DNA from: Dehalococcoidia bacterium
GTDB lineage: Bacteria; Chloroflexota; Dehalococcoidia; Plut-88900
Assembly: GCA_965197585.1 (NCBI GenBank)
Contig: OZ240215.1
Span: 1,056,001-1,120,000 of the forward strand
Length of the DNA: 64,000 nt
Direction: 5' to 3'
The notes below the pieces were generated by a model, which was not told where the DNA came from, made no database searches, and saw only the letters and a list, made by a program, of their open reading frames with translations. Positions 11,095-31,016 of the stretch are shown here, in pieces (position 1 is the first letter of the stretch; each line of letters opens with the position of its first letter). Both the position numbers and the translations under genes were made by a program.

Positions 11095-12342
11095 TCAGGT
11101 GTCTCGAGTCTCTCTGACCATGAGAACGATGGGTACCAGGAGAGCGGCGACGGCTGCCGTCATCAGGAAGCCCGGCCCGAGGGATGCGTAGGAATCTCGC
11201 AGCTCACCCATGATGTAGGGTCCGAAGAATCCGCCCACCTCCGCCGCGGCGAAGAACATTCCCGCCGCCACCCCCATCTTCGCCGCCCCGACACCCCGCG
11301 TCTCCATCAGCAGCAGTGAACACATTGGCAGCATCGGCTGTGCCGCAAAGGTAAGCGCCATCAACGCGGCCACCGCACCTGTGCCGGGAAGGTATACCAT
11401 TGCCGTGGCTGCGACCGCGCAGACCACGAGCTGCAGGCTCGTCACCGGGACCCGGTAACCTCGCTTTACGAAACCCGGTATGGCCAGCAGGCCAATGAGC
11501 CCCACACCGGTCGCGAGCGCCGCCCACAACCCTCCCGCATCCAGCGACATGCCTTTCTCCTCCAGGAGGGCGGGCGCCCAGCTGGAGTTGCCCACGTGAA
11601 CCACGAAAGTTCCCGCCGCCAGAATCAAGATGATCTTCACGTTCCGAAGCCGGAGCATGGACGTGAACTCGCTGATGGCGAGGGACCGGGTGGCGAGGGG
11701 AGCGCTGGCAGGCCGGGTCTCCGGTTCGCGTGCGAAAAGGACCCAGGCCACGGCGATGAGAGCCACGAGGATGCCGTAGACAAGGGAGATGCCTCGCCAC
11801 GACCCGGTTAGAGGTTCGACCACAGTGTTTGCGGTGGCGAAGGCCAGGGCTATCCCCGATGCAGGACCCGTCGAGTAGATCCCCGTTGCTATACCCCGCT
11901 CTCGGCCCTCGAACCAGACCGACACCAGCTTGGGAGAGCCCACGGAGATCAGCGGTCCACCAAAACCGAACAGGCCCACGGTCAAGAACAGCTGTAGGAA
12001 GTTCTGGGAGAGGCCACGGGTAACCAGGGAAGCCAAGATTATCAGAACACCCAGGCCCAGCGACTTTCGCAACCCCAGGCGGTCCACCAAGAGGCCCACG
12101 ACTGGCGCGAAAAAGATGTAGACCACGTGCCAGCTCCCGTGCACCAGGCCCATCTGCGCCGAGGTCATGTTCAGATCTTCCTGGATAGGCGTGACCAGGG
12201 GTGAGATGGTGCCAAAAGTCAGGCCGAAGGAGAAGTAGAGGGACCAGCACAGGCCGACCATGAGCCATCGGGCTCTGGGTTTTGACTTAGGGATGGGATA
12301 GAGCGGAGCTGTCGCGACGGGGGTGGGGGGCGATGGAGGCAT
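11095..12342 (-). CDS. MFS transporter
   Basis: About 12 hydrophobic segments; motif A GLLVDRLGLRK. Confidence 0.88.
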   Translation of the reverse strand: MPPSPPTPVATAPLYPIPKSKPRARWLMVGLCWSLYFSFGLTFGTISPLVTPIQEDLNMTSAQMGLVHGSWHVVYIFFAPVVGLLVDRLGLRKSLGLGVLIILASLVTRGLSQNFLQLFLTVGLFGFGGPLISVGSPKLVSVWFEGRERGIATGIYSTGPASGIALAFATANTVVEPLTGSWRGISLVYGILVALIAVAWVLFAREPETRPASAPLATRSLAISEFTSMLRLRNVKIILILAAGTFVVHVGNSSWAPALLEEKGMSLDAGGLWAALATGVGLIGLLAIPGFVKRGYRVPVTSLQLVVCAVAATAMVYLPGTGAVAALMALTFAAQPMLPMCSLLLMETRGVGAAKMGVAAGMFFAAAEVGGFFGPYIMGELRDSYASLGPGFLMTAAVAALLVPIVLMVRETRDT

Positions 12343-12500
12343 GGGAACATGATAGTAACAGGGGAGACATTGCTAGTCTATGAATGGGAGCGTGGTAGAG
12401 GGTTGGGTGGAGCCATATCTGATATGATGCGCGCTGCCCACTGGAGAACGTGAGAAATGACGCGAACAAACACGCTAGTCATGCCTGAGGAGGTTACATA

Positions 12501-13181
12501 ATGCTTACGTACAAGGGTCGGGAGATACCCGAGACCTTCGCCGAGATAGTCGACCCGAAGCACACCGTTTTGATAGTCCACGAGATGCTAAACGACTTCC
12601 TTAACCCGAACGGCGAGTTCGCCAAGACCATCCCCGACAACGGGCTGGTGAAGTGCCTTCCCGAACAGATTGGCCCGACAGTTAACCTGCTCAACGAGGC
12701 CCGGGCCGCCGGTGTGAAGGTTATATACGTCGGCTGGACGAACTACCCCGACAACAGCACCCGTGCGGACCCCGAGATCCGGCTCGCCTACGATCAGATC
12801 ATGGACGGGACCTACGTCATGCAGCGGTGCCTGATGGAAAACACCTGGGGCCACGACGTGATAGACGAACTCAAGCCCGCGCCCGGAGACCTTGTCATCA
12901 ACAAATACAAGAGAGACGCATTTGCAGGCACCAGCCTCGAAGCGATATTGCAGTGGAACCGGATCAAGACCTTCATAATCGTGGGGATAGGCGTGCACGT
13001 CGGAATCATCCCGACGGTTAGCAATGGGATGAACAAGGGCTACTTCACGGTTGCACCTGAGGACTGCATGATCTCCCACGAGCCGGAGTGGATTGAAGCC
13101 TCGATGAAGTTCTTCAACATGTGGGGCTTCACAAACCCTTCTACGGACCTGATCGCTGCTTGGAAGGGTGAGGGGAGCTAG
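12501..13181 (+). CDS. Isochorismatase/cysteine hydrolase family protein (non-canonical active site)
   Basis: ENTWG, INKYKRDAF, GTSLE and PEDC motifs; strong RBS GAGGAGG upstream. Confidence 0.85.
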   Translation: MLTYKGREIPETFAEIVDPKHTVLIVHEMLNDFLNPNGEFAKTIPDNGLVKCLPEQIGPTVNLLNEARAAGVKVIYVGWTNYPDNSTRADPEIRLAYDQIMDGTYVMQRCLMENTWGHDVIDELKPAPGDLVINKYKRDAFAGTSLEAILQWNRIKTFIIVGIGVHVGIIPTVSNGMNKGYFTVAPEDCMISHEPEWIEASMKFFNMWGFTNPSTDLIAAWKGEGS

Positions 13182-14785
13182 GCGGAACGCGAGGCCTCTC
13201 CCTGGAGCATAGTCTCCAGGACGTCGTTGGGGCCTACGGAGCCGAGGAGAGCCCCGGACTCGCGGTCTACCACCGGGAATACCGAGATGGCGTGCTCTGC
13301 CATCTGCTCCAGGAAGTCGTCGAGGGGTTCGTCGGGGTAGGTGAGGACAGGACTGCGGTTCAGCAGGCTGCCGATACGGATGTTCGGCCAGGTATCTTGC
13401 GGCAACCGGCGCACCCTGCGAAGCGAGAGGGTCCCGGCCAACTTCCCCTGACCCTCGGTGATTACGTAGTCCTGGCGTTCATGTCCTGCCCACAGCTCCA
13501 TGAACTGCTGCACCGTCAGGTTGGCATTGGCGAAGCGCCGCCCCTTTTCCAGGATGTTGTTGACGGTGAGTCCCTGGAGAGAGAATCGGGCGAAGGAAGG
13601 CACGATTGAGGTCGGGAGGGTTGCCCGTTGGGTTTCGTCTGTTCTCCTAATGGTAAGTCCCATGAGTGGAGGCACTACAAATATGAAGGCGATCATGAGG
13701 AGCGTTAGCAGGGAGAACATCTCCCGCGAAATCACTTCGTGTTCCAGGAGAATGTGAAGGAAAGCTATTTCGATCACTCCTTTCCCCATGATGCCGGAAG
13801 CCACCGCGAGTCGACGCGACAATCGGGCCACCGTGACTCCCATCAAAGACCCTGCGGCTTTGGCAAATATCACCACTGGGATGACGGTTGCAAGGGTCGA
13901 GGCGGGCAAATTGGTGAAGGAAAGGTCCACGTGAGTCCCGGCCGAAGCGAAGAACAAGGGAATGAATACGCCTTGGGACAGGCCGCGAATCGAGGGTAGG
14001 ATTTCGTTACGGAGTCGGCGGGGAAGGCCCGAGTTGACCATGCCGAATACCAGGGCGGCCAAGGCCTCGTCCATCCCGATCTCGTGGGCGCCCCAGACCA
14101 CTATGAACAGGCTGCCTACCATAAGTGCAGAGGCAAGCTGGGGCGCTCCGATAATCCTTCTCAAGGAGACAAGGACCCGCGGTACAACCTTCGCTGATAG
14201 CACCCATGACGCAACTACAAACAGAATGATCTCTCCGAGCAGGACCGCTATTTTCCAGCCCCCCAGCCCGCCGGGATGCGACGATTCCTCTAGCGCGAAA
14301 CCCGCAACCAATAGGCCGACAATCTCGACAATTACCACGGTGGTGAAGATTTCCAGGCCAACTGAGTCTTTCAACTTGCCGAGGTCTCCCAGCACGCGGG
14401 CCGCAATGCCCAGGCTCGAGAGTCCCATCAGGGAGGCCAGGGTGACGGCGTTGGGTGCGGAGAGGTCTATCAGGTAGAGGAAGACCAGCAGGTTGGCGGT
14501 AAATGGGACGGCGAAGCTGATGAGAGCAGCGACGAAGAAGCGGCCACGCAGGGTCCCGACGAAACCGGATATGTCAATCTCATCGATTCCGATGAGGAAG
14601 AAAAGAAAGAGGACCCCAACCTCGAAGAAGAGCTTGGCTTCCTCGCCGGGCTCAAACCAGATGCCCAATATGATGCCCACGACGAGGTAGGCCAAGAGGG
14701 AGCTCTGTTTGAAGCGGACAGCCGCGCCCTCCAGCAGTTTGGCGCATACCAGGACGAGGCCAATGATCAGGAAATCGCTGGTCAT
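13178..14785 (-). CDS. Cation:proton antiporter (CPA2) with C-terminal CBS pair
   Basis: Multi-TM N-terminal region with PLFFASAG; C-terminal CBS-like segment (FPVVD...LLGSV). ATGA overlap with the upstream gene. Confidence 0.85.
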   Translation of the reverse strand: MTSDFLIIGLVLVCAKLLEGAAVRFKQSSLLAYLVVGIILGIWFEPGEEAKLFFEVGVLFLFFLIGIDEIDISGFVGTLRGRFFVAALISFAVPFTANLLVFLYLIDLSAPNAVTLASLMGLSSLGIAARVLGDLGKLKDSVGLEIFTTVVIVEIVGLLVAGFALEESSHPGGLGGWKIAVLLGEIILFVVASWVLSAKVVPRVLVSLRRIIGAPQLASALMVGSLFIVVWGAHEIGMDEALAALVFGMVNSGLPRRLRNEILPSIRGLSQGVFIPLFFASAGTHVDLSFTNLPASTLATVIPVVIFAKAAGSLMGVTVARLSRRLAVASGIMGKGVIEIAFLHILLEHEVISREMFSLLTLLMIAFIFVVPPLMGLTIRRTDETQRATLPTSIVPSFARFSLQGLTVNNILEKGRRFANANLTVQQFMELWAGHERQDYVITEGQGKLAGTLSLRRVRRLPQDTWPNIRIGSLLNRSPVLTYPDEPLDDFLEQMAEHAISVFPVVDRESGALLGSVGPNDVLETMLQGEASRSA

Positions 14786-15696
14786 GCTGCGAGGCAGGGC
14801 AATGCAGCAGCCAGGGCATTAATGTGGTCGGGCGTGGTGCCGCAGCACCCACCTATGGCCCGCGCTCCGAGCCCACTCCACTCCTTGGCGTAATCCAGAT
14901 ATTCCTCGGGGGACATCGACTCTTCAAAGTCCCATCCCACGCCTTGATACACGGCGCCCTGTGCGTAGGCGCCTATTGGCATATTGTGGTGTCCGGCCAG
15001 CTGATTGAGGGCAGCCGTGACGTACGGGGCCTGGCAGCAGTTGAGGAATAGCACCGACGCGCCCGCATCTCTAACCGCGGCCTGAGCGTCCAGGATGCTT
15101 TCCCCTGACTTGACCCGGCCCTCCTCGTCGACCACGAATCCGGCCCAGGCAGGCATCCCGGCCTCAACGGCGGCCTTAACCCCCGCGACAGCCTCGTGGA
15201 TTTTGGTGCATGTCTCGACGAGGATTACGTCGACACCCGCTTGAGCCAGGACACGGACCTGCTCCCGATAGGCGGACAAGCATTCATCGTAAGACAGTAC
15301 GGCGTCGGGATTGTAGGACTGGCTGAGGGGGCCCAGGGAGCCGGCGACGATTACTTCACGGTCGGGGGCTGCGGCCCGGGCCTCTAGGGCGGCCTTTGCG
15401 GCCAGCTCGTTGATCCGTACCATCTCCGCCTCTGCCTTCGCCTTGGATATCCAGCCGATGTGGGTCAACTTGCCGGTGTTGCAGTTATAAGTGTTGGTAA
15501 TTGTTACTTCAGCCCCGGCACGGATAAAGTCTTCGTGGATCTCCCGAATGCCTTCCGGGGACTCCAGCATCGCCGCTACCGAGAGCTCCGACGACCCTGC
15601 AGCGATGCCATGCCTTTTGATTTCGGTGCCCATGCCGCCGTCGAGGATGACGGCGTCGCCCCGGGCCAGTTTGGCGGTCAACGTAGCGAGGCTCAT
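14782..15696 (-). CDS. Homocysteine S-methyltransferase family protein
   Basis: ILDGGMGTE, TNTY, GSLGP, LNC and GGCCGTTP Zn-ligand motifs. Confidence 0.9.
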   Translation of the reverse strand: MSLATLTAKLARGDAVILDGGMGTEIKRHGIAAGSSELSVAAMLESPEGIREIHEDFIRAGAEVTITNTYNCNTGKLTHIGWISKAKAEAEMVRINELAAKAALEARAAAPDREVIVAGSLGPLSQSYNPDAVLSYDECLSAYREQVRVLAQAGVDVILVETCTKIHEAVAGVKAAVEAGMPAWAGFVVDEEGRVKSGESILDAQAAVRDAGASVLFLNCCQAPYVTAALNQLAGHHNMPIGAYAQGAVYQGVGWDFEESMSPEEYLDYAKEWSGLGARAIGGCCGTTPDHINALAAALPCLAA

Positions 15697-15714
15697 TGCG
15701 GCACCCCCTATGTG

Positions 15715-16416
15715 CTAGTCTCTCATCCCTTCCAGTACGGTCGCGATACCCTTCTGCAGGTCCTCGAACACCTCGCGGACGCTGCGCCGTGCGTCGATGG
15801 TCTCAAAATCGTACTGTTTGGAGAGGCTGCGAAATTCCTCGATGAGCGACCCCTGGTAGCGGACGAAGCTGGCGTAACGATCGGGCTCCCGAAGGAAGTC
15901 GTGCCCCGACTCCCAGTGATCGAGCTCTCGATTAGCCATGACGCGGGGAATCAGGTGCACCAAGTCCACGTCCAGGAAATAGATTTTATCCGGTACCATT
16001 GCGAACTCCAGCACGTCGTCGAGCCATCTGGCGGGGACGCCTCGAACCCTGGCACGCGCCATTATGGAGAAGATGTAACGGTCGCCCAGGATGACCATTC
16101 CGGCCTCCAGCGCTGGCATAATGCTCCTCTCCATTCGGTCCCAGAAATCGGTGGCGTAAAAGAGGTTAAGGGTAAGGTAGTCAAGGATATGTCCCCGCTT
16201 GGCGCGGTCTATCCCGCTGCCCGTCAGCGAGGAACGCCTGAATCCCGTGTCGGAAACGGCAAAACCTTCTGTCTCCAGCCATTCCTTGAGCAGCGCTATC
16301 TGGGTGGACCGCCCGACACCGTCGGTCCCTTCGATCACGATGAGGCGGCCCGGCAGCGGTTTCTCCGCCAGCTTGAGGGGGGTGTGACCGTAGAATGTTG
16401 GAATCTTCATCAGCAT
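15715..16416 (-). CDS. Thymidylate-kinase-like protein B with degenerate P-loop; candidate polyphosphate kinase subunit
   Basis: LIVIEGTDGVGRST (Lys to Arg), GDRYIFS, dTMP kinase fold features. Confidence 0.8.
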   Translation of the reverse strand: MLMKIPTFYGHTPLKLAEKPLPGRLIVIEGTDGVGRSTQIALLKEWLETEGFAVSDTGFRRSSLTGSGIDRAKRGHILDYLTLNLFYATDFWDRMERSIMPALEAGMVILGDRYIFSIMARARVRGVPARWLDDVLEFAMVPDKIYFLDVDLVHLIPRVMANRELDHWESGHDFLREPDRYASFVRYQGSLIEEFRSLSKQYDFETIDARRSVREVFEDLQKGIATVLEGMRD

Positions 16417-16459
16417 ATCCTCATAGCGGTATGATCGCGCAAGTGGCTGTAGTGGGAGG

Positions 16460-17284
16460 CTACCCCTCGGTAAGAATGGGATCGGTCAGGCGCTGATATC
16501 CAGTGGGGGGCAAATAGCGGCCTGTTAACCCGGTGCTGGACAGAGCGTCAGGTACGCTGTGGCTGTCGAACTGCATAATTCCCGGGAGCAGGGGCTCGAC
16601 GTACTTTCTGACCTTTTGTTGCTGCGCGGCTATCGTCTGAGTGGCGTCTATGGTTACTAGGCCGTACTCATCCGTGAGCCTGCCGTATTCCTCCAGGAGG
16701 CGGCCCTGAAACTTGCGGAAAGACTCCTCTCGGCTGGAGGAGAGCCCTAGGTCCTGCCCCGACTCATAGAAGCCAAGCTGGTCGCGGCCTGTGACTATCC
16801 GGCGGATCGATTCGTCCAGGGGAACTTTGAAATAGAAGGCCAGGGAGGGCCGGATAGCGAAAGAATAGACGCGGCGCAGCCATTCTCCGTTGACCCCGCG
16901 GGCTGTGTCCCTGGCAAGGGCGGTGTAGACATAACGGTCGGCTAGAACTATGGTACCCGACTTCAGGGCGGGTATAACCTGCGTGTAGACGCGGTTGGCG
17001 AAGTCAGCGGCGTGGATCAAGCTGAAGGACATGGGAGTCAGCATTCTCTCCTGCTTGCCCCGTTTGGTAGTCCGCTTGACGATTGGTGAGGAGTTCCACT
17101 CCGTGAAAATAGTGACGTAACCAAGCCGCTTCAGCCATTTGCCCAGCAGATCAATCTGGGTGCTCTTGCCGGAGCCGTCTATGCCCTCGACGATGATCAG
17201 GCGGCCAGGGTACTTGCCATCTTGTGGATGATTCCCGTACCTCTGGCCCATTTGGAAGTTCGCGCTCAGGTCGTTATCCGTCAT
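16460..17284 (-). CDS. Thymidylate-kinase-like protein A with intact P-loop; candidate polyphosphate kinase subunit
   Basis: IVEGIDGSGKST, TEWNSS, ADRYVYT. ATG at 17284 lies 2 nt after the ppx stop. Confidence 0.82.
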   Translation of the reverse strand: MTDNDLSANFQMGQRYGNHPQDGKYPGRLIIVEGIDGSGKSTQIDLLGKWLKRLGYVTIFTEWNSSPIVKRTTKRGKQERMLTPMSFSLIHAADFANRVYTQVIPALKSGTIVLADRYVYTALARDTARGVNGEWLRRVYSFAIRPSLAFYFKVPLDESIRRIVTGRDQLGFYESGQDLGLSSSREESFRKFQGRLLEEYGRLTDEYGLVTIDATQTIAAQQQKVRKYVEPLLPGIMQFDSHSVPDALSSTGLTGRYLPPTGYQRLTDPILTEG

Positions 17285-17286
17285 CT

Positions 17287-18909
17287 CTACCCTCGTACGA
17301 TGTGCAAAGGTTGGTTGAACTCTGCATTCCAGCGTTCCTGAAGATGCGGGGCTGAGGCCCGGGCCCAAGCCGGGGTGACTATAGTGACTAATTCCTCCCC
17401 GGAAGCGTTTGGAGTCTCACTTTTCTCCGGCGAAATGGTAACACATTCCGGCGAAACATCAGGCGGCAAACGGCGCTCGATTTCGTCGGTAACCAGCAGG
17501 ATGGCAGCTGCCTGTCCTACAAACCGCTTGTCGGTTGGTGTCAACGCATCCGAACGTAGGAAGGGCCTTATAAGAATCTTGTCCTCGGCAGCTAGCAGTA
17601 TTGCGGCTATCTGGGCGCATTCCCTGTGGGTAAACCCTGGCAGATCAGACCGGGTGACCAGGGCGGCGGCCCTGTCGTACCGGTTATAGAAATCAATTGA
17701 GCTGCCTACGTCCAGAAGAAGGGCAGCGCATCGGAGAGACGAGGTTAGACGGCGGTGGCGGCCCTGCCATACGGCCTCTGCGATACGGCCACTGATGTTG
17801 GCCCTCCGTGCCCCGCGCCGGGAGAACCGAGGAGCGAAGCGCTGGGTCAGGTCGCGTAGGCCCTCGGATCGGATCTTGGAGCGTTTCGGCAGAGAGATAG
17901 TCTTGCCCGTTGGTATAGGGCTTGGATGCCGAGCCAGACCCTCCCGCAACCCCTGCCCCGATACGATTATCCCCTTGGCTCCTGTGTGGGATATAAGAGT
18001 TTGTGCTATCAACGCACCCCCGACAATAGAGTGGATCCGCCTGCGGTTCATGCCGGAGATGAGCGCTCGCTCCTCTCTCGTTGAAGAGGCCATCATATCC
18101 ATGAGAATTGCGAGCCCGTTGGCGCTGATGTAGTAGCCGTGCATTTTGGGAACAGGATGGGCAGTCCGGCGGCGGTCCAGCTTCGCCAGGAGTCTCATAG
18201 AGCCTCCGGACCCGACCAGCGCTCCTCCCTTGGAGAGAGGCGGGATTTTGGCCTCGGAGAAAAGGTCTGCGGCGTGTTGGGCGGCAGCGGCCAGGTCTTC
18301 CGGCGAGGGTTTGTCGGTCAGCCGGAACAGGTTGGCAAAACGCAAGCTGCCGAGCCGCAGGGAATCGAGAGTCTTCAGAGAACGGCGGGCGAATTGCACT
18401 ATCTCGGTGCTGCCGCCGCCCAGGTCCGCGAGGAGACCCCGGGCCACGGGCAGCCCGTGAATGGCACCGATGAAGCAGTAAGCGGCCTCCTCATATCCCT
18501 CGATTATTCGAAATGCGACGCCGTGCTTTTTGGTCGCGGCCTCTGTCACTTGGAAGGAATTGAGAGACTCCCGTAAGGCCGCCGTGCCCACACCATGCAC
18601 TTCCGTGATGCCGTATCCCGAACAGACTTGGGCAAAGTCCTCGATTGCGTCTATGACCCCTGAAACACCTTCTGAGTCCAGAGTCCCGTCGGCGTCGACG
18701 TGAGACATCAGGTTCAGGTTCAGTACTTGCTGGGCTATTGGTTCTATGCCCCCGCCGGGATTCAGGCGAATGATCTCGGCCCTGGCCGAGCCCGACCCTA
18801 TGTCGATAACAGCGGTCAGGGAGTCGTTGGATAGAGGGGTCGGGCCATGCGCCTCGGCGTGGAGGTCATGACGCGGCCGAGTTTGGAAGGAGCGAAGTTC
18901 AGGAACCAA
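17287..18909 (-). CDS. ppx: Ppx/GppA exopolyphosphatase family protein
   Basis: VIDIGSGS, GTAALRE, GYEEA, DLGGGSTE and GLREG motifs, plus an HD-like C-terminal helical domain. Start codon uncertain. Confidence 0.9.
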   Translation of the reverse strand: MVPELRSFQTRPRHDLHAEAHGPTPLSNDSLTAVIDIGSGSARAEIIRLNPGGGIEPIAQQVLNLNLMSHVDADGTLDSEGVSGVIDAIEDFAQVCSGYGITEVHGVGTAALRESLNSFQVTEAATKKHGVAFRIIEGYEEAAYCFIGAIHGLPVARGLLADLGGGSTEIVQFARRSLKTLDSLRLGSLRFANLFRLTDKPSPEDLAAAAQHAADLFSEAKIPPLSKGGALVGSGGSMRLLAKLDRRRTAHPVPKMHGYYISANGLAILMDMMASSTREERALISGMNRRRIHSIVGGALIAQTLISHTGAKGIIVSGQGLREGLARHPSPIPTGKTISLPKRSKIRSEGLRDLTQRFAPRFSRRGARRANISGRIAEAVWQGRHRRLTSSLRCAALLLDVGSSIDFYNRYDRAAALVTRSDLPGFTHRECAQIAAILLAAEDKILIRPFLRSDALTPTDKRFVGQAAAILLVTDEIERRLPPDVSPECVTISPEKSETPNASGEELVTIVTPAWARASAPHLQERWNAEFNQPLHIVRG

Positions 18910-19178
18910 GACGCTGTAGTTTTCTCAGAAGACTTGATCCTTGTCGTACACAGAATGGCGGGCTTGCGAGCATGGCTCAGATAAAGGGTGCGTGTTTCAG
19001 TTCCGATGATAATACAGGCCTTCAAAGGGGCGCAATGTGTCGGGACGCCCCCCGGCTTTCGAATCATCGCCTTGCCCTTGATTCCTATACACACGACTGA
19101 CAATGTCATTCATATACGCTAATTCAGTACAATGCCCATAAATGCATTAGTTCAAACATGGCATAGGCATATGACTCT

Positions 19179-22100
19179 TTGACTCCTTCATACAATCCCC
19201 GAATCGGAGCAGCGCTGGCCGTTCTCGTCATTGCGGCGAGTGTTTTCCTGGGATGGCCGGGATTACCCCTGCCCGCATGGGCGAATGGGGATGACTGGGG
19301 GATGGTCAAAATAAGTGAGGTCACCAAGACCGAGGCCAAGGTCACGATCACCTTCGTCGACGAAACCGCAACCGGTCTTGTTCATTGGCGATACCGCAAC
19401 ACCATGCCCGAGGGACAATGGCTCGGACTTGACGGGGTCTCGGTCATCGGCGGTATCTCCGTATTCGATATTGCTATGCTGAGCCCCGGGACCGATTATG
19501 AGTTACAAGTGTCTCTCGACGGGGATTTTTTGCAGACTGACATCCTATCTAAGAATTTCACAACCCTACCCCCCGACCCATCCGTTTCTGAAGTGATTGT
19601 TGAGAACGTCACCCTGACGGAGGCGACCGTCGTTATAACCATTGCCAACCCAGGTACTTCTTCCAAGACGGTACACATCCAATACCGCACCGACGACACC
19701 CAGCCCTGGAGCGATCCGCCAATCACCATAACCACCTCTACCGATACAGCAACGAAAACGCTGCTCAGCCTAAATCCCGGTACCCGCTACGAAGTGGAGG
19801 CCTCCCTGGGAGTCGGTTTCCTGTCCACCGAGACTGAATCCACGACTTTCACCACCCTCCTCCCAAGGGTCTCGGGTGTGAGCCTAGAAAATGTCACCAC
19901 TTCCAAAGCTACAGTCACGGTAACCATCGCCGAACCGGGGCCCGGTGAAAACAAGGTCTACTTGCGTTACAGCATCGTGCCTTCAACACAGATCTCTTGG
20001 ATTATCCCTTCTCCGAAGTCGGTGGTCGGAGATACAACAACCTTCGCGCTGACAGGTCTGGCCCCGTACTCCGAATACGAAGTGCAGGTGTCTCTGGATG
20101 GCTCATTCACCTCAGAGGTCGAGTCCGCCACCTTTACAACGGCAGCTCCCCCGAGCATCGGTTCGGTGAACATGGCAGATGTCGAGCAGAATTCAGCCAG
20201 TGCTATTGTGAGCATCTTCGACTCGGATGGGACCGCCGTAACCGTCCACCTGCGCTACCGCGAGACACCCTCTGGAGCTTGGATTGCGATCCAACACGAG
20301 ATAACTACGACTGAAGCTGCGGAATTCTCATTGTCGGGCCTGATGCCGGACACAGAATACGAGGTGGAAGTGTCGCTGGATAACGGCTTCTCTCTGGGTC
20401 GGTCCGCCACTTTTACTACCGAAGCAATGACGTCCAGGCCATCCTCACCAGTGGTTCGGGTCTCCGGGCTCTTCACAGAAGACATAACGCCTGGCTCGGT
20501 GACCGTGGTTGTATTGATCGCAGGCCCGGAAAACCGAGTAACGGTGAATTTGCGGTATGGGATCGAAGGCACGAATACGTGGAGCCGTACACTTCGCCGA
20601 ACCACCGCTACGGACACCGCTCCATTCGAGCTTGGAGGGCTGACGGCCGCCACGACTTACGATATAGAAGCGTCCCTATCCCCTGACTTTCCGGTCCACG
20701 AATCCGCGTACGATATCTTTACAACTGCCGCAATTAGTGTTTCGCGGCTCAGGCTGGTAGACATAACCGACACAGAGGCGACCGCGATTGCAGAGATTGA
20801 AGATCCCCAAGGCCAGACTACGGTCTTCGTGCGCTACATAGCCTTGGGAACGGGGGCTTGGAGCGAACCTCAAAGCCGAATTACTAGCTCCAATACGGTG
20901 CGTCTTTTCCTAGCGGGCCTCCTGCCGGATACTCAATACGAGGTGGAGGCCTCTTCAGAGGAGAGCTTCCCCGGTGATAACTCGGCACTCGAGACATTTA
21001 TCACCGAGCCCGCGCCCAGGGTCTCTGAGGCAAATGTGGAGGGCATCACCAATGTGTCCGCCACAATTGCAGTGGACATTGACAGCCCACAGGCTCAGAT
21101 GAAGGTATATCTGCGGTTCCGTGTCGAGGGTACAGGGACCTGGAGTACGACCAGAACCCGTACTACCTCCATACCCAGCGCTCGGTTTTCCTTAGCGGAC
21201 CTGAAGTCTGATACGGGATATGAAGTCGAGACGTCCCTTGACAAGGACTTCCCAGCAGACAGCACTGTATCTGTGGTCTTTTCTACGCAACCGAATCCCA
21301 AGGTCTCAGACGTGACAGTCGAGGACATAACGGAAAAGAGCGGGACTGCAATTGTGAAGATTAACGGGCCACAACCCCGGACAACGGTCTATCTGCGCCA
21401 CCAAGCCCATGGAGACTCGGCTTGGAGCGTGCCTCAAACCCGAACAACCTCTTTGGACACTGCGCGATTTACTTTGTCGGGTCTGATGCCGGACACCGAG
21501 TACGAAGTAGAGGTTTCACTGAATCACGACTTTGAGGAGCTTATTTCTGAGACCTTCCTTACGGCTGCAAAAAGGCCGAAGCCATCCTCCGTAACAGGAG
21601 GGCCTATTACGCAGACCACGGCCTCTATCATTGTGCATATAGACGACCCTCAAGGCAGTTTGACAATCCATCTGCGTATCCGAATTTGGGGCTCAAATAC
21701 TTGGAACAATCCTGAAACCCTCGTAACGTCGGCCTCCGCCGCTCCCTTCGACCTGAAACGCCTTACAGGAGGCACAACCTACGAAGTCGAGGTGTCCCTT
21801 GAATCAGCCTTCCCTCCTGCGGATACTGTTTCGGCCATCTTCACGACCACCCCTGCGACTAAGGTGTCGGGGGTGAATGTCGGAAGTGTTGCTGCAATAG
21901 AAGCCACCGTCACGGTCACAATTTCTCACTCTGAAGGGAATATCCGGACGGTCTATATGCGCTACCGCGGGCTGCCTGAGGGGGACTGGAGTGCAAGCCA
22001 AACGGAAACGGATGCGTCAACAGTGGATGCCCTGTTACCGGGCTTGATTCCCGATACTGAATACGAGGTACAGGCTTCGTTGTATGAGACTTTTCCGGCT

Positions 22101-22589
22101 ACCGACACCCAAGTACAGAGGTTCAATACTCTTTCCGCACAGCCCACGGAAATGCCAACCCCCGTGCCCGCAGCAACACCCACTCATACGCCTACCCCCG
22201 AACCCACATCAACACCCGAGCCCATATTTACCCCCGAACCAACCCCCACATCCACACCCAAGGCCGAGCCCACCATGACCCCCACTCCTCCACCCTCCCC
22301 AACACCCACGCCTCCACCGTCTCTCACCCCCACTCCCACGGCAACTCCCAGCCATACCTCCACCCCGACCAATACGCCCAAACCCGCCGAGACGCCTGCT
22401 CCCACGCCTACCACAATCCTAACTGCACCTGCACTATTTTCACCCACCTCTGCCCCTACCTCGACATCTCAGGCGGAGGAAGAAGAGACCGGGACAGACT
22501 TAGCCCTCGTGATCACCATAGTTACATTGGTCATTGCCTTTGCTATGGTGCTCGGCTTCTTCGTATACCGTCCGAGAACGGCGAGTTAG
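19179..22589 (+). CDS. Large surface protein: signal peptide, 10 fibronectin type III-like repeats, Pro/Thr linker, C-terminal TM anchor
   Basis: About 95-aa repeats of the form A-x-V-x-V-x-I...YLRY...W...GLxPxTxYEVEVSL...FTT; (PT)n stretch; hydrophobic C-terminus followed by RPR. Confidence 0.85.
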   Translation: MTPSYNPRIGAALAVLVIAASVFLGWPGLPLPAWANGDDWGMVKISEVTKTEAKVTITFVDETATGLVHWRYRNTMPEGQWLGLDGVSVIGGISVFDIAMLSPGTDYELQVSLDGDFLQTDILSKNFTTLPPDPSVSEVIVENVTLTEATVVITIANPGTSSKTVHIQYRTDDTQPWSDPPITITTSTDTATKTLLSLNPGTRYEVEASLGVGFLSTETESTTFTTLLPRVSGVSLENVTTSKATVTVTIAEPGPGENKVYLRYSIVPSTQISWIIPSPKSVVGDTTTFALTGLAPYSEYEVQVSLDGSFTSEVESATFTTAAPPSIGSVNMADVEQNSASAIVSIFDSDGTAVTVHLRYRETPSGAWIAIQHEITTTEAAEFSLSGLMPDTEYEVEVSLDNGFSLGRSATFTTEAMTSRPSSPVVRVSGLFTEDITPGSVTVVVLIAGPENRVTVNLRYGIEGTNTWSRTLRRTTATDTAPFELGGLTAATTYDIEASLSPDFPVHESAYDIFTTAAISVSRLRLVDITDTEATAIAEIEDPQGQTTVFVRYIALGTGAWSEPQSRITSSNTVRLFLAGLLPDTQYEVEASSEESFPGDNSALETFITEPAPRVSEANVEGITNVSATIAVDIDSPQAQMKVYLRFRVEGTGTWSTTRTRTTSIPSARFSLADLKSDTGYEVETSLDKDFPADSTVSVVFSTQPNPKVSDVTVEDITEKSGTAIVKINGPQPRTTVYLRHQAHGDSAWSVPQTRTTSLDTARFTLSGLMPDTEYEVEVSLNHDFEELISETFLTAAKRPKPSSVTGGPITQTTASIIVHIDDPQGSLTIHLRIRIWGSNTWNNPETLVTSASAAPFDLKRLTGGTTYEVEVSLESAFPPADTVSAIFTTTPATKVSGVNVGSVAAIEATVTVTISHSEGNIRTVYMRYRGLPEGDWSASQTETDASTVDALLPGLIPDTEYEVQASLYETFPATDTQVQRFNTLSAQPTEMPTPVPAATPTHTPTPEPTSTPEPIFTPEPTPTSTPKAEPTMTPTPPPSPTPTPPPSLTPTPTATPSHTSTPTNTPKPAETPAPTPTTILTAPALFSPTSAPTSTSQAEEEETGTDLALVITIVTLVIAFAMVLGFFVYRPRTAS

Positions 22590-22652: not shown

Positions 22653-22928
22653 ATGCCGAGGATACAACTGATACTCTCCGACGAAGAGCGAGAGCTGTTC
22701 AAGGCTCAAGCACATCGAGAGGGCAAGCCCCTTGATGAATGGCTGAAGGCTGCCGCTCGCCAGCGTCTCGGGTGGGCACCCCCTGCAACCAGGCCTGGCA
22801 GAATTGAAGACCTTGACGCGTTCTTCCGTAAGTGCGATGAGATTCCAGGACCCGAACGTGAACCCGACTGGGAGGAGTACAAGAAGCTGATTAATGAGGT
22901 GCGTCCGTCAGTAGCGGACGCCTCGTGA
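22653..22928 (+). CDS. Putative VapB antitoxin (RHH/CopG-like)
   Basis: 91 aa with an RHH-like N-terminus; GTGA overlap with the PIN gene. Confidence 0.75.
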   Translation: MPRIQLILSDEERELFKAQAHREGKPLDEWLKAAARQRLGWAPPATRPGRIEDLDAFFRKCDEIPGPEREPDWEEYKKLINEVRPSVADAS

Positions 22929-23308
22929 TTTTCGTCGACACCAACGTCTTCATTTATGCTGTGGGAAGCAGTCATCCGTTGAAGAGTCCAGCGGAGGAGT
23001 TTTTCCGTAGCGCTCGGGACAGCGGCACGTCCCTAGTTACCTCTGTGGAAGTACTCCAAGAGTTGCTCCACGTCTATCGACGCACTGGTAGACTTCAACA
23101 ATTGGATGATGCGATGTCACTGGTCACAAGTGACATCGCACAAGTGTGGCCTTTGGAGTGGGCGGATGTGGACAAGGCCCGACAACTCCACGATAGCTAT
23201 CCTGGACTGGCGACTCGAGACCTCTGCCACCTGGCAAGTTGTAGGAATCGGGGCGTTGAGACGATTATGACCTTCGACCAGCCTCTGCTTTCGGCGGCTA
23301 GCGCCTGA
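22925..23308 (+). CDS. vapC: VapC PIN-domain toxin
   Basis: IFVDTNVFIY, EVLQE, RDLCHLA and TFD acidic PIN residues. Confidence 0.9.
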   Translation: MIFVDTNVFIYAVGSSHPLKSPAEEFFRSARDSGTSLVTSVEVLQELLHVYRRTGRLQQLDDAMSLVTSDIAQVWPLEWADVDKARQLHDSYPGLATRDLCHLASCRNRGVETIMTFDQPLLSAASA

Positions 23309-26943: not shown

Positions 26944-27296
26944 TGGTGGAGACGGGGGAGGGTCGAACTCCCCGTCCAGAAGGTGGCCCCAGAGCGTCTA
27001 CAGGCTTAGACGGCACTTAAATTTCGCCCGCCGTATCGCAGCCGACGACGACAACGGAAGGCTAGCTGAATAGTCTTAACCTGTCCCTCACAGCATTAGG
27101 GCAGGAGCACCTCGATTTGCGTCGCCCTGAGACGGCCTTCGAGGAGAGGCCGAACAGGACGGGTTACCTAGTGTCTAGGCAGCCAGTGCGTACTGACGTT
27201 TGCCAGTTATGTTTTTGCCGCTGGTTTTACGAGTCCCACGGCGCCTCGGCCTGCAACCCTGGGTTACCGTGACTCCTGTCGAGCCCACGCGTCCCC
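26944..27296 (-). ncRNA. ssrA: tmRNA; tag peptide (A)GKRQYALAA*
   Basis: 5' GGGGACG pairs with 3' CGTCTCC-ACCA including G3:U; T-loop GTTCGA; ATAACT-GGC resume context; directly downstream of smpB. Confidence 0.95.
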
Positions 27297-27355
27297 AAGC
27301 TGTAGGACTTTATTTTAACATAACGTCTTGCTTGGGGCTCGGGACCCGAAGAGCG

Positions 27356-27817
27356 TCAGCTCCGTCTTATGCCGATTTCTTTGAGGACCGCCCGCTGCAT
27401 CTGCCTATCGGCCTCCCGACGTGCGATGGCCGCTCGCTTGTCATAAAGTTTGCGGCCGCGTGCCACCCCGATCTCTATCTTCGCCTTATGGTTCTTGATG
27501 TAGAGCCTGAGCGGAACCAGGGTTAATCCCTTTTCCTGCACCTTGGATGAGAGGTAGTCGATCTGGCCGCGGTGCATAAGCACCTTTCTAGGGCGCATGG
27601 GCTCGTGGTTCGAACGATTGCCGTTGGAGTAAGGCGAAATGTGGGCGCCGTGGAGCCAAAGCTCGTCGTCTTCGGGGCGTGCGAATGCATCCCGGATATT
27701 GACCTTGCCGTCCCGGATCGACTTGATCTCCGTTCCCGTAAGCACGAGTCCTCCTTCGAACGACTCCAGGATGTCGTACTCAAAACGGGCCTTGCGGTTG
27801 ACGCTGATGGTTTTCAT
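27356..27817 (-). CDS. smpB: SsrA-binding protein
   Basis: NRKARFEY, GLVLTGTEIKSIR, GLTLVP and GRKLYDKR motifs. Confidence 0.97.
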   Translation of the reverse strand: MKTISVNRKARFEYDILESFEGGLVLTGTEIKSIRDGKVNIRDAFARPEDDELWLHGAHISPYSNGNRSNHEPMRPRKVLMHRGQIDYLSSKVQEKGLTLVPLRLYIKNHKAKIEIGVARGRKLYDKRAAIARREADRQMQRAVLKEIGIRRS

Positions 27818-30658: not shown

Positions 30659-30670
30659 TGAATGGGACTT

Positions 30671-31005
30671 GGAGACCGGGTGGCCGCCCGCCTCGGCGGG
30701 AGGAAAGTCCGAGCTCCACCGGGAAGGATGCTGGGTAACTCCCAGGAGGGGAAACCCTACGGAAAGTGCCACAGAAACATACCGCCCGCCCATGGCGGGT
30801 AAGGGTGAAATGGCGAGGTAAGAGCTCACCAGTAGTCGGGAGACCGGCTAGCTGGGCAAACCCCATCCGGAGCAAGGCCAAATAGGAGGACAATGGGACC
30901 CGGCCCGTCCTCGGGTTGGCTGCTCGAGCCCGGCGGTAACGCCGGGCCCAGATAGATGGCCACCGTCCGCCTCAGGCGGATACAGAACTCGGCTTATAGG
31001 TCTCC
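30671..31005 (+). ncRNA. rnpB: RNase P RNA (type A)
   Basis: GAGGAAAGTCCGAGCTC, GAAAGTGCCACAGAAA, GAGCAAGGCCAAATAG and ACAGAACTCGGCTTA; terminal GGAGACC/GGTCTCC P1 pairing. Confidence 0.97.
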
Positions 31006-31016
31006 GCAGGTCTCGG

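Follow-up and report, generated by a model that had tools for sequence, protein, structure and literature searches.

A ppx-linked pair of thymidylate kinase-like genes in a Dehalococcoidia bacterium is a likely PPK3-type polyphosphate turnover module

The closest described counterpart of the locus analyzed here is PPK3 of Sulfolobus acidocaldarius (SaPPK3), a heteromeric polyphosphate (polyP) kinase (PPK) composed of the catalytic subunit Saci_2019 and the regulatory subunit Saci_2020 in an alpha2beta2 arrangement (PMC12995831; J Biol Chem 2026). According to the portions of that report drawn on here, Saci_2019 produces polyP, an activity that Saci_2020 stimulates when present at a 1:1 ratio, and the enzyme favours the reaction ADP + polyP -> ATP, with reduced activity on GDP. 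Saci_2020 alone showed no activity as a PPK or as a deoxythymidine monophosphate kinase (dTMPK), with trace ADP formed; neither protein formed dTDP, the true dTMPK being Saci_0893. The operon has the order sixA-ppx-c-r-CHAD, in which c and r are the genes for the catalytic (cPPK3) and regulatory (rPPK3) subunits (PMC12995831). Here we analyzed a 64-kb stretch of DNA from a Dehalococcoidia bacterium (contig OZ240215.1, positions 1,056,001 to 1,120,000; hereafter the window, whose own numbering is used throughout), in which a ppx gene is followed by two thymidylate kinase (TMK)-like genes, A and B. The initial annotation of this locus had pointed to a heteromeric PPK of S. acidocaldarius encoded beside ppx, and that system does exist, as Saci_2019 and Saci_2020 (PMC12995831).

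The same report identifies the protein of Protein Data Bank (PDB) entries 2plr and 5h70 as STK_15430 of S. tokodaii, a cPPK3 homologue, and explains the inactivity of rPPK3s by replacement of the Arg in their DRX motif. It describes the PPK3 clade as consisting mainly of bacterial dTMPK paralogues in polyP operons and lists Nitrososphaerota among the holders of PPK3; its abstract and discussion speak of "a few" scattered bacteria with the enzyme (PMC12995831). Because PPK3 with predicted bacterial operons is thus already published, the module in the window is not a new kind. The family and its bacterial spread are in print, and the gain here is one member and some detail. The main new detail, judging from the alignments, is that the defect of the partner subunit lies in a Walker A Lys-to-Arg exchange and not in loss of the DRX Arg.

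We consider it likely that ppx, A and B together form a PPK3-type polyP turnover module. The initial annotation had proposed a polyP synthesis and degradation operon in a bacterium, and the best structure match, the tree, the profiles, the residue signatures, the gene order and the neighbouring genes all argue for such an operon. Its assignment of a catalytic role to A and a regulatory role to B likewise gains support, as a prediction, from the c and r clades, the profiles and the residues. The gene arrangement, the family placement, the residue states and the conservation of the pair are direct observations and are set out below.

The three genes are head-to-tail open reading frames (ORFs), all on the minus strand. 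The ppx gene (17287-18909) encodes a Ppx/GppA-family exopolyphosphatase of 540 amino acids (aa) that starts at TTG 18909, the sole candidate start before codon 68. Its TAG is followed after 2 nucleotides (nt), as originally described, by ATG 17284 of A (16460-17284; 274 aa), the predicted catalytic, cPPK3-like subunit, with GAGGG just 5' of this start. B (15715-16410; 231 aa), the predicted regulatory and catalytically impaired, rPPK3-like subunit, follows across a minus-strand spacer (16411-16459) that, as read from the sequence, carries GAGGA at 16418-16422, 7 nt before ATG 16410. The first ATG of the B ORF, at 16416, would give 233 aa and the 43-nt gap to A reported initially. That figure stands for this codon only: ATG 16410 appears to be the likelier start, because GAGGA lies 7 nt upstream of it and most homologues are about 231 aa long, and it gives a gap of 49 nt.

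Pfam matched ppx to Ppx-GppA (6.2e-46) and both TMK-like proteins to Thymidylate_kin (PF02223; A 3.8e-22, B 1.1e-20). A and B share 35% identity over 224 aa (E 1e-47), far beyond chance, so the description of the two as clear paralogues was correct, as were the motifs attributed to them, namely GIDGSGKST (A), GTDGVGRST (B) and the shared DRY and ESGxD. Among PDB sequences, the best match of A was 2plr/5h70, that is, STK_15430 (3.5e-52, 180.6 bits), and the next was a canonical Tmk at 56.3 bits. B gave the same best match (2.2e-32, 115.8 bits), with the best canonical Tmk at 43.3 bits. Identity between A and STK_15430 is about 43% (90 of 207 positions, by hand count of the printed alignment).

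Homologues of both proteins are abundant. A and B each have thousands of matches, and 309 matches to A at E <= 1e-30 were obtained among 1.84 billion cluster representatives. Identity to A is 63-91% in its best 120 clusters, except for six longer fused forms at 54-58%, and all of the best 120 for B are 67-99% identical to it. We also scanned species-representative genomes with an alignment of c-type proteins; at least 600 stretches matched, and a relative, possibly canonical Tmk in some cases, was encoded by at least 548 of them. We examined further the best 80 of these at least 548 (loci L001-L080). Bacteria account for 69 of the 80 loci and at least 14 named phyla, including Acidobacteriota (24), Verrucomicrobiota (11), Chloroflexota (10), Planctomycetota (5), Nitrospirota (5) and others; eight loci are archaeal, six of them from Nitrososphaerota. 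The closest of the 80 are Dehalococcoidia metagenome-assembled genomes (MAGs), at 74, 70 and 66% identity. A second TMK-like gene comes immediately after c on the same strand in 76 of the 80 loci, and two loci have the order r-ppx-c. No second TMK-like gene was seen in the remaining two; in one of these the contig ends 39 nt past c, and the other leaves 1727 nt of space. Two Chloroflexia MAGs have an r gene broken by frameshifts into two or three parts (L029:10717-11345; L036:10771-11521), which may reflect a pseudogene or an assembly error.

We built a phylogenetic tree with IQ-TREE (LG+C20 PMSF) from 64 rows, comprising the c and r proteins of 29 chosen loci, A, B, eight cluster representatives and three annotated Tmk proteins (from E. 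coli, an Agrobacterium plasmid and a Vibrio plasmid), on which the tree was rooted. The PPK3 group was separated from this outgroup with a support of 100/97. Within it, A fell in a c clade of 28 rows (95/83) as sister to the c protein of L001 (100/98), and B fell in an r clade of 26 rows (97/82) as sister to the r protein of the same locus (96/85). Each clade includes Nitrososphaerota genes, and the two repeat the same Chloroflexota grouping. Profiles built from the c genes of 72 loci and the r genes of 70, with the window proteins excluded, drew the same distinction: A scored 342.9 bits with the c profile and 229.7 with the r profile, B scored 321.3 with r and 183.8 with c, and E. coli Tmk scored 47.7 with c and 48.0 with r. 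In the 62 loci that have both, c and r proteins show correlated pairwise identities (r = 0.85), with means of 0.567 for c and 0.478 for r. This correlation shows co-inheritance, not interaction.

Next, we compared the residues of the two subunits, using 73 aligned c rows (72 loci and A) and 72 r rows (70 loci, B and the second TMK-like gene of L074). Genes outside the alignment were rechecked for motifs, comprising eight c genes and those r genes that cover the site in question (seven for Walker A, six for DRY). A carries the Walker A K40, D116-R117-Y118 and the lid residues R162 and R167, which are the same in all 73 aligned c rows, and the eight rechecked c genes all have GK[ST] and DRY/F. 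The c-specific residues E62-W-N-S-S66, K77, H91, R98, D126 and R167 occur in 71-73 of the 73 c rows. At positions that might line a positively charged polyP cleft, A has K77, R98, R125, R129, R162 and R167, together with Gly171. Two tails of A, residues 1-26 (17206-17284) and 235-274 (16460-16580), are absent from the 213-aa archaeal protein and are strongly conserved in 115 close homologues (MGxRYGxHPxDGxYPG and SVPEAL..GLTGRY..RR).

The r proteins differ in a consistent manner. They have G62, R65 and Y91, lack R167 and, in 56 of 72, carry Asp171. The Walker A Lys is replaced by Arg in 71 of the 72 aligned r rows, B included, and in all seven rechecked r genes; counted by partner genes, Arg is present in 77 of 78, the exception being L074. 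The DRY Arg is retained in all 73 c rows, in all 72 r rows, including six from Nitrososphaerota, and in the six further r genes. Since Nitrososphaerota, which PMC12995831 counts among PPK3 holders, keep this Arg, we treat loss of the DRX Arg as a probable trait of Sulfolobus-type r proteins and not of the family. One r-like deep representative, P0344, keeps the Lys and has NKY for DRY, which is the pattern described in that report. The second TMK-like gene of L074 (10666-11307; a Gastranaerophilales MAG) is a basal branch of the r clade. Its product retains the Walker A Lys together with EW-K-T-S but already has Tyr91, no Arg167 and Asp171, a combination that looks intermediate between c and r.

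These residue states bear on the alternative that survives best, in which B would be a nucleotide-binding or weakly active subunit and both proteins would share in chemistry or sensing. B keeps the P-loop Glu, Asp and Gly as well as DRY, Arg125, Arg129 and Arg162, and the exchange of Lys for Arg is conservative and nearly fixed across partner genes. In P-loop kinases, however, a Walker A Lys-to-Arg exchange usually abolishes phosphoryl transfer. B also lacks the second lid Arg (R167) and the c-specific TEWNSS, and has Asp in place of the Lys171 of c proteins. The Sulfolobus partner can be cited on both sides, as Saci_2020 formed trace ADP but had no PPK or dTMPK activity alone (PMC12995831). 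On balance, we regard an active or nucleotide-sensing B as somewhat unlikely, and favour the assignment of B as a regulatory partner.

The proposed link of the pair to ppx extends to relatives: a ppx homologue is present within the stretch in 48 of the 80 loci; in 28 of these it is no more than 300 nt away from the pair, and in the other 20 the distance is 300-3000 nt. The Dehalococcoidia loci L001 and L002 each have a ppx gene immediately upstream of c, to which the window ppx is 55% and 50% identical, respectively. We then clustered 537 ORFs that neighbour the pairs at a distance of up to 4 kb, and took a single representative from each of the 11 largest clusters for a family scan. The clusters comprised Ppx-GppA (42 loci), CHAD (22), SixA-like histidine phosphatase (18), PstB (8), ROK kinase (7), PhoU (4) and PPK2 (3), and by this cluster count one or more polyP- or phosphate-linked neighbours occur in 51 of the 80 loci. 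In its seven loci, which include L065, L067, L072 and L073, the ROK-family sugar kinase gene is separated from the pair by a median of 35 nt; it matches the polyphosphate-glucose phosphotransferase model weakly (35.5 bits; cut-off 250).

Natural fusions were also seen. Fusions of c and r, in the order of the genes, make up at least 22 clusters that cover at least 81% of the 464-aa fusion P0019. Single proteins join c-r to a Ppx domain III/HD module (P0246, P0250, P0254 and P0268), and others join NUDIX to a c-type domain (P0309, P0359, P0361, P0372 and P0382); judged by their domain make-up, these fusions are a further tie of the family to phosphate-anhydride metabolism. In addition, c-type domains are fused to SPX, MFS plus APH/DUF2252, inorganic-pyrophosphatase-like or ART-PolyVal domains in nine representatives (P0296, P0375, P0317, P0323, P0325, P0387, P0300, P0332 and P0334), all with T[ERS]WNSS and DRY-type motifs in the c-type domain. 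We found no literature linking the SPX domain with thymidylate kinase.

The neighbours and fusions also speak to a second alternative, in which the pair would be a polyP-linked phosphotransferase with an acceptor or role unlike that of SaPPK3, for example a polyP-dependent GDP or nucleoside monophosphate (NMP) kinase or an enzyme linked to (p)ppGpp turnover by a neighbour of the GppA type. Ppx/GppA-family enzymes can act on pppGpp, and the window ppx reaches neither the exopolyphosphatase nor the GppA cut-off. A is only about 43% identical to STK_15430, and c-type domains elsewhere occur in fusions with NUDIX, pyrophosphatase-like and SPX domains. Nevertheless, the best NCBIfam model for ppx is TIGR03706, "exopolyphosphatase", at 225.8 bits (cut-off 307), against 99.8 bits for GppA; the CHAD, PstB, PhoU and PPK2 neighbours point to polyP and phosphate; and SaPPK3 itself prefers ADP and is less active on GDP (PMC12995831). 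We therefore consider a different acceptor improbable, and retain ATP/ADP and polyP as the predicted substrates of a PPK3-type module.

Several features separate the pair from canonical thymidylate kinase. Neither protein reaches the 83.25-bit cut-off of TIGR00041, the dTMP kinase model, with 82.9 bits for A and 71.6 for B. The E. coli Tmk positions F74, R78, T105, Y108 and Q109, which we take to be the thymine/dTMP contacts, correspond to H, F, A, a gap and R in A, and to Y, F, I, a gap and R in B. Moreover, c and r proteins have in common an insert of 10-14 residues after the lid with [YW]E[SA]GxD. PF02223 was the sole Pfam report at E <= 0.01 for either protein, and neither matched the PPK2 profile (PF03976). 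As had been anticipated, standard annotation would call these genes tmk, and sources name their close homologues "dTMP kinase" or "thymidylate kinase". Five plasmid records matched A, all of them canonical-like tmk genes (30-36% identity) and none with a PPK3 pair, and two of them supplied outgroup proteins for the tree; the one matching phage record is a phage thymidylate kinase (31% identity).

That A is a real dTMP kinase, either housekeeping or a second copy, with B a decaying duplicate and ppx an incidental neighbour, is favoured by the Pfam Thymidylate_kin matches of both proteins, by a TIGR00041 score of A just 0.35 bits under the cut-off, by the names that sources give to the homologues, by the first report of STK_15430 as an unusual thymidylate kinase (preprint of PMC12995831) and by the lack of any other tmk or third TMK-like gene within the 64-kb window, but we hold it to be very unlikely in view of the replaced thymine-contact positions in both proteins, the conservation of the pair and its polyP-linked neighbours over many phyla, the absence of dTDP formation by Saci_2019 (PMC12995831), the fact that the earlier STK_15430 assay tracked ADP formation only (preprint of PMC12995831) and the 67-99% identity of B to every one of its best 120 clusters, because of which B does not appear to be decaying.

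A number of observations weigh against assigning ppx, A and B to a PPK3-type module. B keeps the DRY Arg, whose loss is the explanation that PMC12995831 gives for rPPK3 inactivity, and A has Gly171 in place of the Lys found in 70 of 73 c proteins. No ppx was found in 32 of the 80 loci, some of them on short contigs, and the Chloroflexota relatives L003-L006 lack it despite full 10-kb flanks. Two of the three outgroup proteins in the tree are plasmid "tmk" genes of atypical look. The phylogeny called for by the initial annotation placed A in the c clade and B in the r clade, apart from Tmk, but the Sulfolobales-like P0358 (295.5 bits to 2plr) fell outside both clades, as did six further deep representatives. 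Approximately unbiased (AU) tests rejected neither a grouping of P0358 with c (p = 0.274) nor one with r (p = 0.248). P0358 is c-like by signature (TEWNSS, K77, R98, D126, R167 and K171) and by profile (245 versus 192 bits). Because the tests allow either grouping, the orthology of A to the assayed enzyme is carried by signatures and not by the tree. Finally, in the literature on PPK3 and polyphosphate since 2023, we found no biochemistry of a bacterial PPK3 among the matches listed. The "PPK3" that appears in several enzyme-cascade titles is presumably a PPK2-type enzyme.

Given a PPK3-type module, its mode of action can be proposed by analogy with SaPPK3, which would serve as the model for catalysis, for the favoured direction, for complex formation and for the lack of activity in B. 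A would be the catalytic subunit, transferring phosphate reversibly between ATP/ADP and polyP and probably favouring ADP + polyP(n) -> ATP + polyP(n-1). B, a conserved paralogue in which key catalytic residues are missing, would activate A through a hetero-oligomer, for which the natural c-r fusions offer indirect support. Ppx, presumably translationally coupled to A, would hydrolyse polyP to phosphate.

A bolder reading can be offered only tentatively, and we lean against it: PPK3 may be mainly a widespread bacterial system, and not an archaeal one with "a few" bacterial members, whose partner in the main clade of bacteria and Nitrososphaerota would be a distinct Lys-to-Arg pseudokinase that perhaps tunes the enzyme to ATP/ADP, and the system might provide the sole polyP kinase of Dehalococcoidia-like genomes. 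As the Lys-to-Arg exchange comes with a retained DRY Arg, the partner may still bind adenine nucleotides and tune activity to the ATP/ADP ratio. A sole polyP kinase of this sort may be hidden in such genomes under the name "dTMP kinase".

Two genes that sources would label dTMP kinase most likely encode a polyphosphate kinase. With this pair mislabelled, phosphate and energy-storage metabolism would be mis-annotated in Dehalococcoidia-like and many other uncultured bacteria. The locus offers a bacterial pair of non-thermophile origin for a first biochemical test of PPK3 outside Sulfolobus, and the near-universal Lys-to-Arg exchange poses a concrete, testable question as to how the partner subunit works.

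Downstream of B, and also on the minus strand, a homocysteine S-methyltransferase gene (14782-15696; Pfam S-methyl_trans 7.3e-64) begins 18 nt past the B stop. No terminator-like site was found between the two, and they are probably co-transcribed. This gene overlaps by 4 nt with a same-strand gene (13178-14785) for a Na+/H+ exchanger with a CBS domain (Pfam Na_H_Exchanger 1.1e-28, CBS 4.8e-09). We considered both genes as parts of the module and rejected them, because they were not found beside the pair in relatives: no methyltransferase homologue adjoins the pair in any of the 80 loci, the sole matches being distant MetH-like genes in L002, L020 and L025, and the exchanger had no match in any of them. 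A promoter and terminator scan of 12300-19400 yielded nothing exceeding shuffled expectation, and no CHAD, SixA, PPK1 or PPK2 was present among the 49 window ORFs scanned. A 324-aa ORF (15460-16434, plus strand) antisense to B and the methyltransferase gene is taken to be a high-GC artefact and no real gene.

Divergent from ppx, a plus-strand gene (19179-22589) encodes a 1136-aa protein whose N-terminus is signal-like and which contains about a dozen FN3-like repeats, a linker rich in Pro and Thr and, at the C-terminus, a hydrophobic anchor. It is followed at 22653-23308 (plus strand) by a small ORF that overlaps a PIN-domain gene by 4 nt, a VapBC-type toxin-antitoxin layout. At 26944-27817 (minus strand) and 30668-31013 (plus strand) lie a tmRNA (tag GKRQYALAA) beside smpB and, nearby, a bacterial class A RNase P RNA. 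The presence of SmpB, tmRNA and a bacterial RNase P RNA identifies the window as bacterial.

Compared with known systems, A and B share with canonical Tmk (E. coli b1098; TIGR00041) the PF02223 fold family, the P-loop, DRY and the lid Arg, although A is only 25% identical to the E. coli protein; canonical tmk is a single gene, whereas A and B are a conserved pair with replaced thymine-contact positions and an added post-lid insert. As in the ppk1-ppx operons of E. coli and other bacteria, a polyP kinase gene would here adjoin ppx, and the PPK3 neighbourhood has been said to resemble that of PPK1 (PMC12995831), but PPK1 has an unrelated fold and was not seen in the window scan. Two-domain class II PPK2, for example PA3455 of Pseudomonas aeruginosa, combines an active unit with an inactive paralogous oligomerisation unit, as PPK3 does (PMC12995831), and natural c-r fusions mimic this layout, even though A and B have no Pfam PPK2 match. 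SaPPK3 itself comes closest: as in the window, its ppx is followed by two dTMPK-fold paralogues that lie next to each other, in the order ppx-c-r, with full catalytic motifs in one partner and degenerate ones in the other, and the CHAD and SixA-like genes of its operon match the neighbourhood in the window's relatives (PMC12995831). The host of the window, by contrast, is bacterial, and CHAD and SixA are missing from its scanned ORFs. Unlike the Sulfolobus rPPK3 (PMC12995831), moreover, B keeps the DRY Arg and carries the Walker A Lys-to-Arg exchange.

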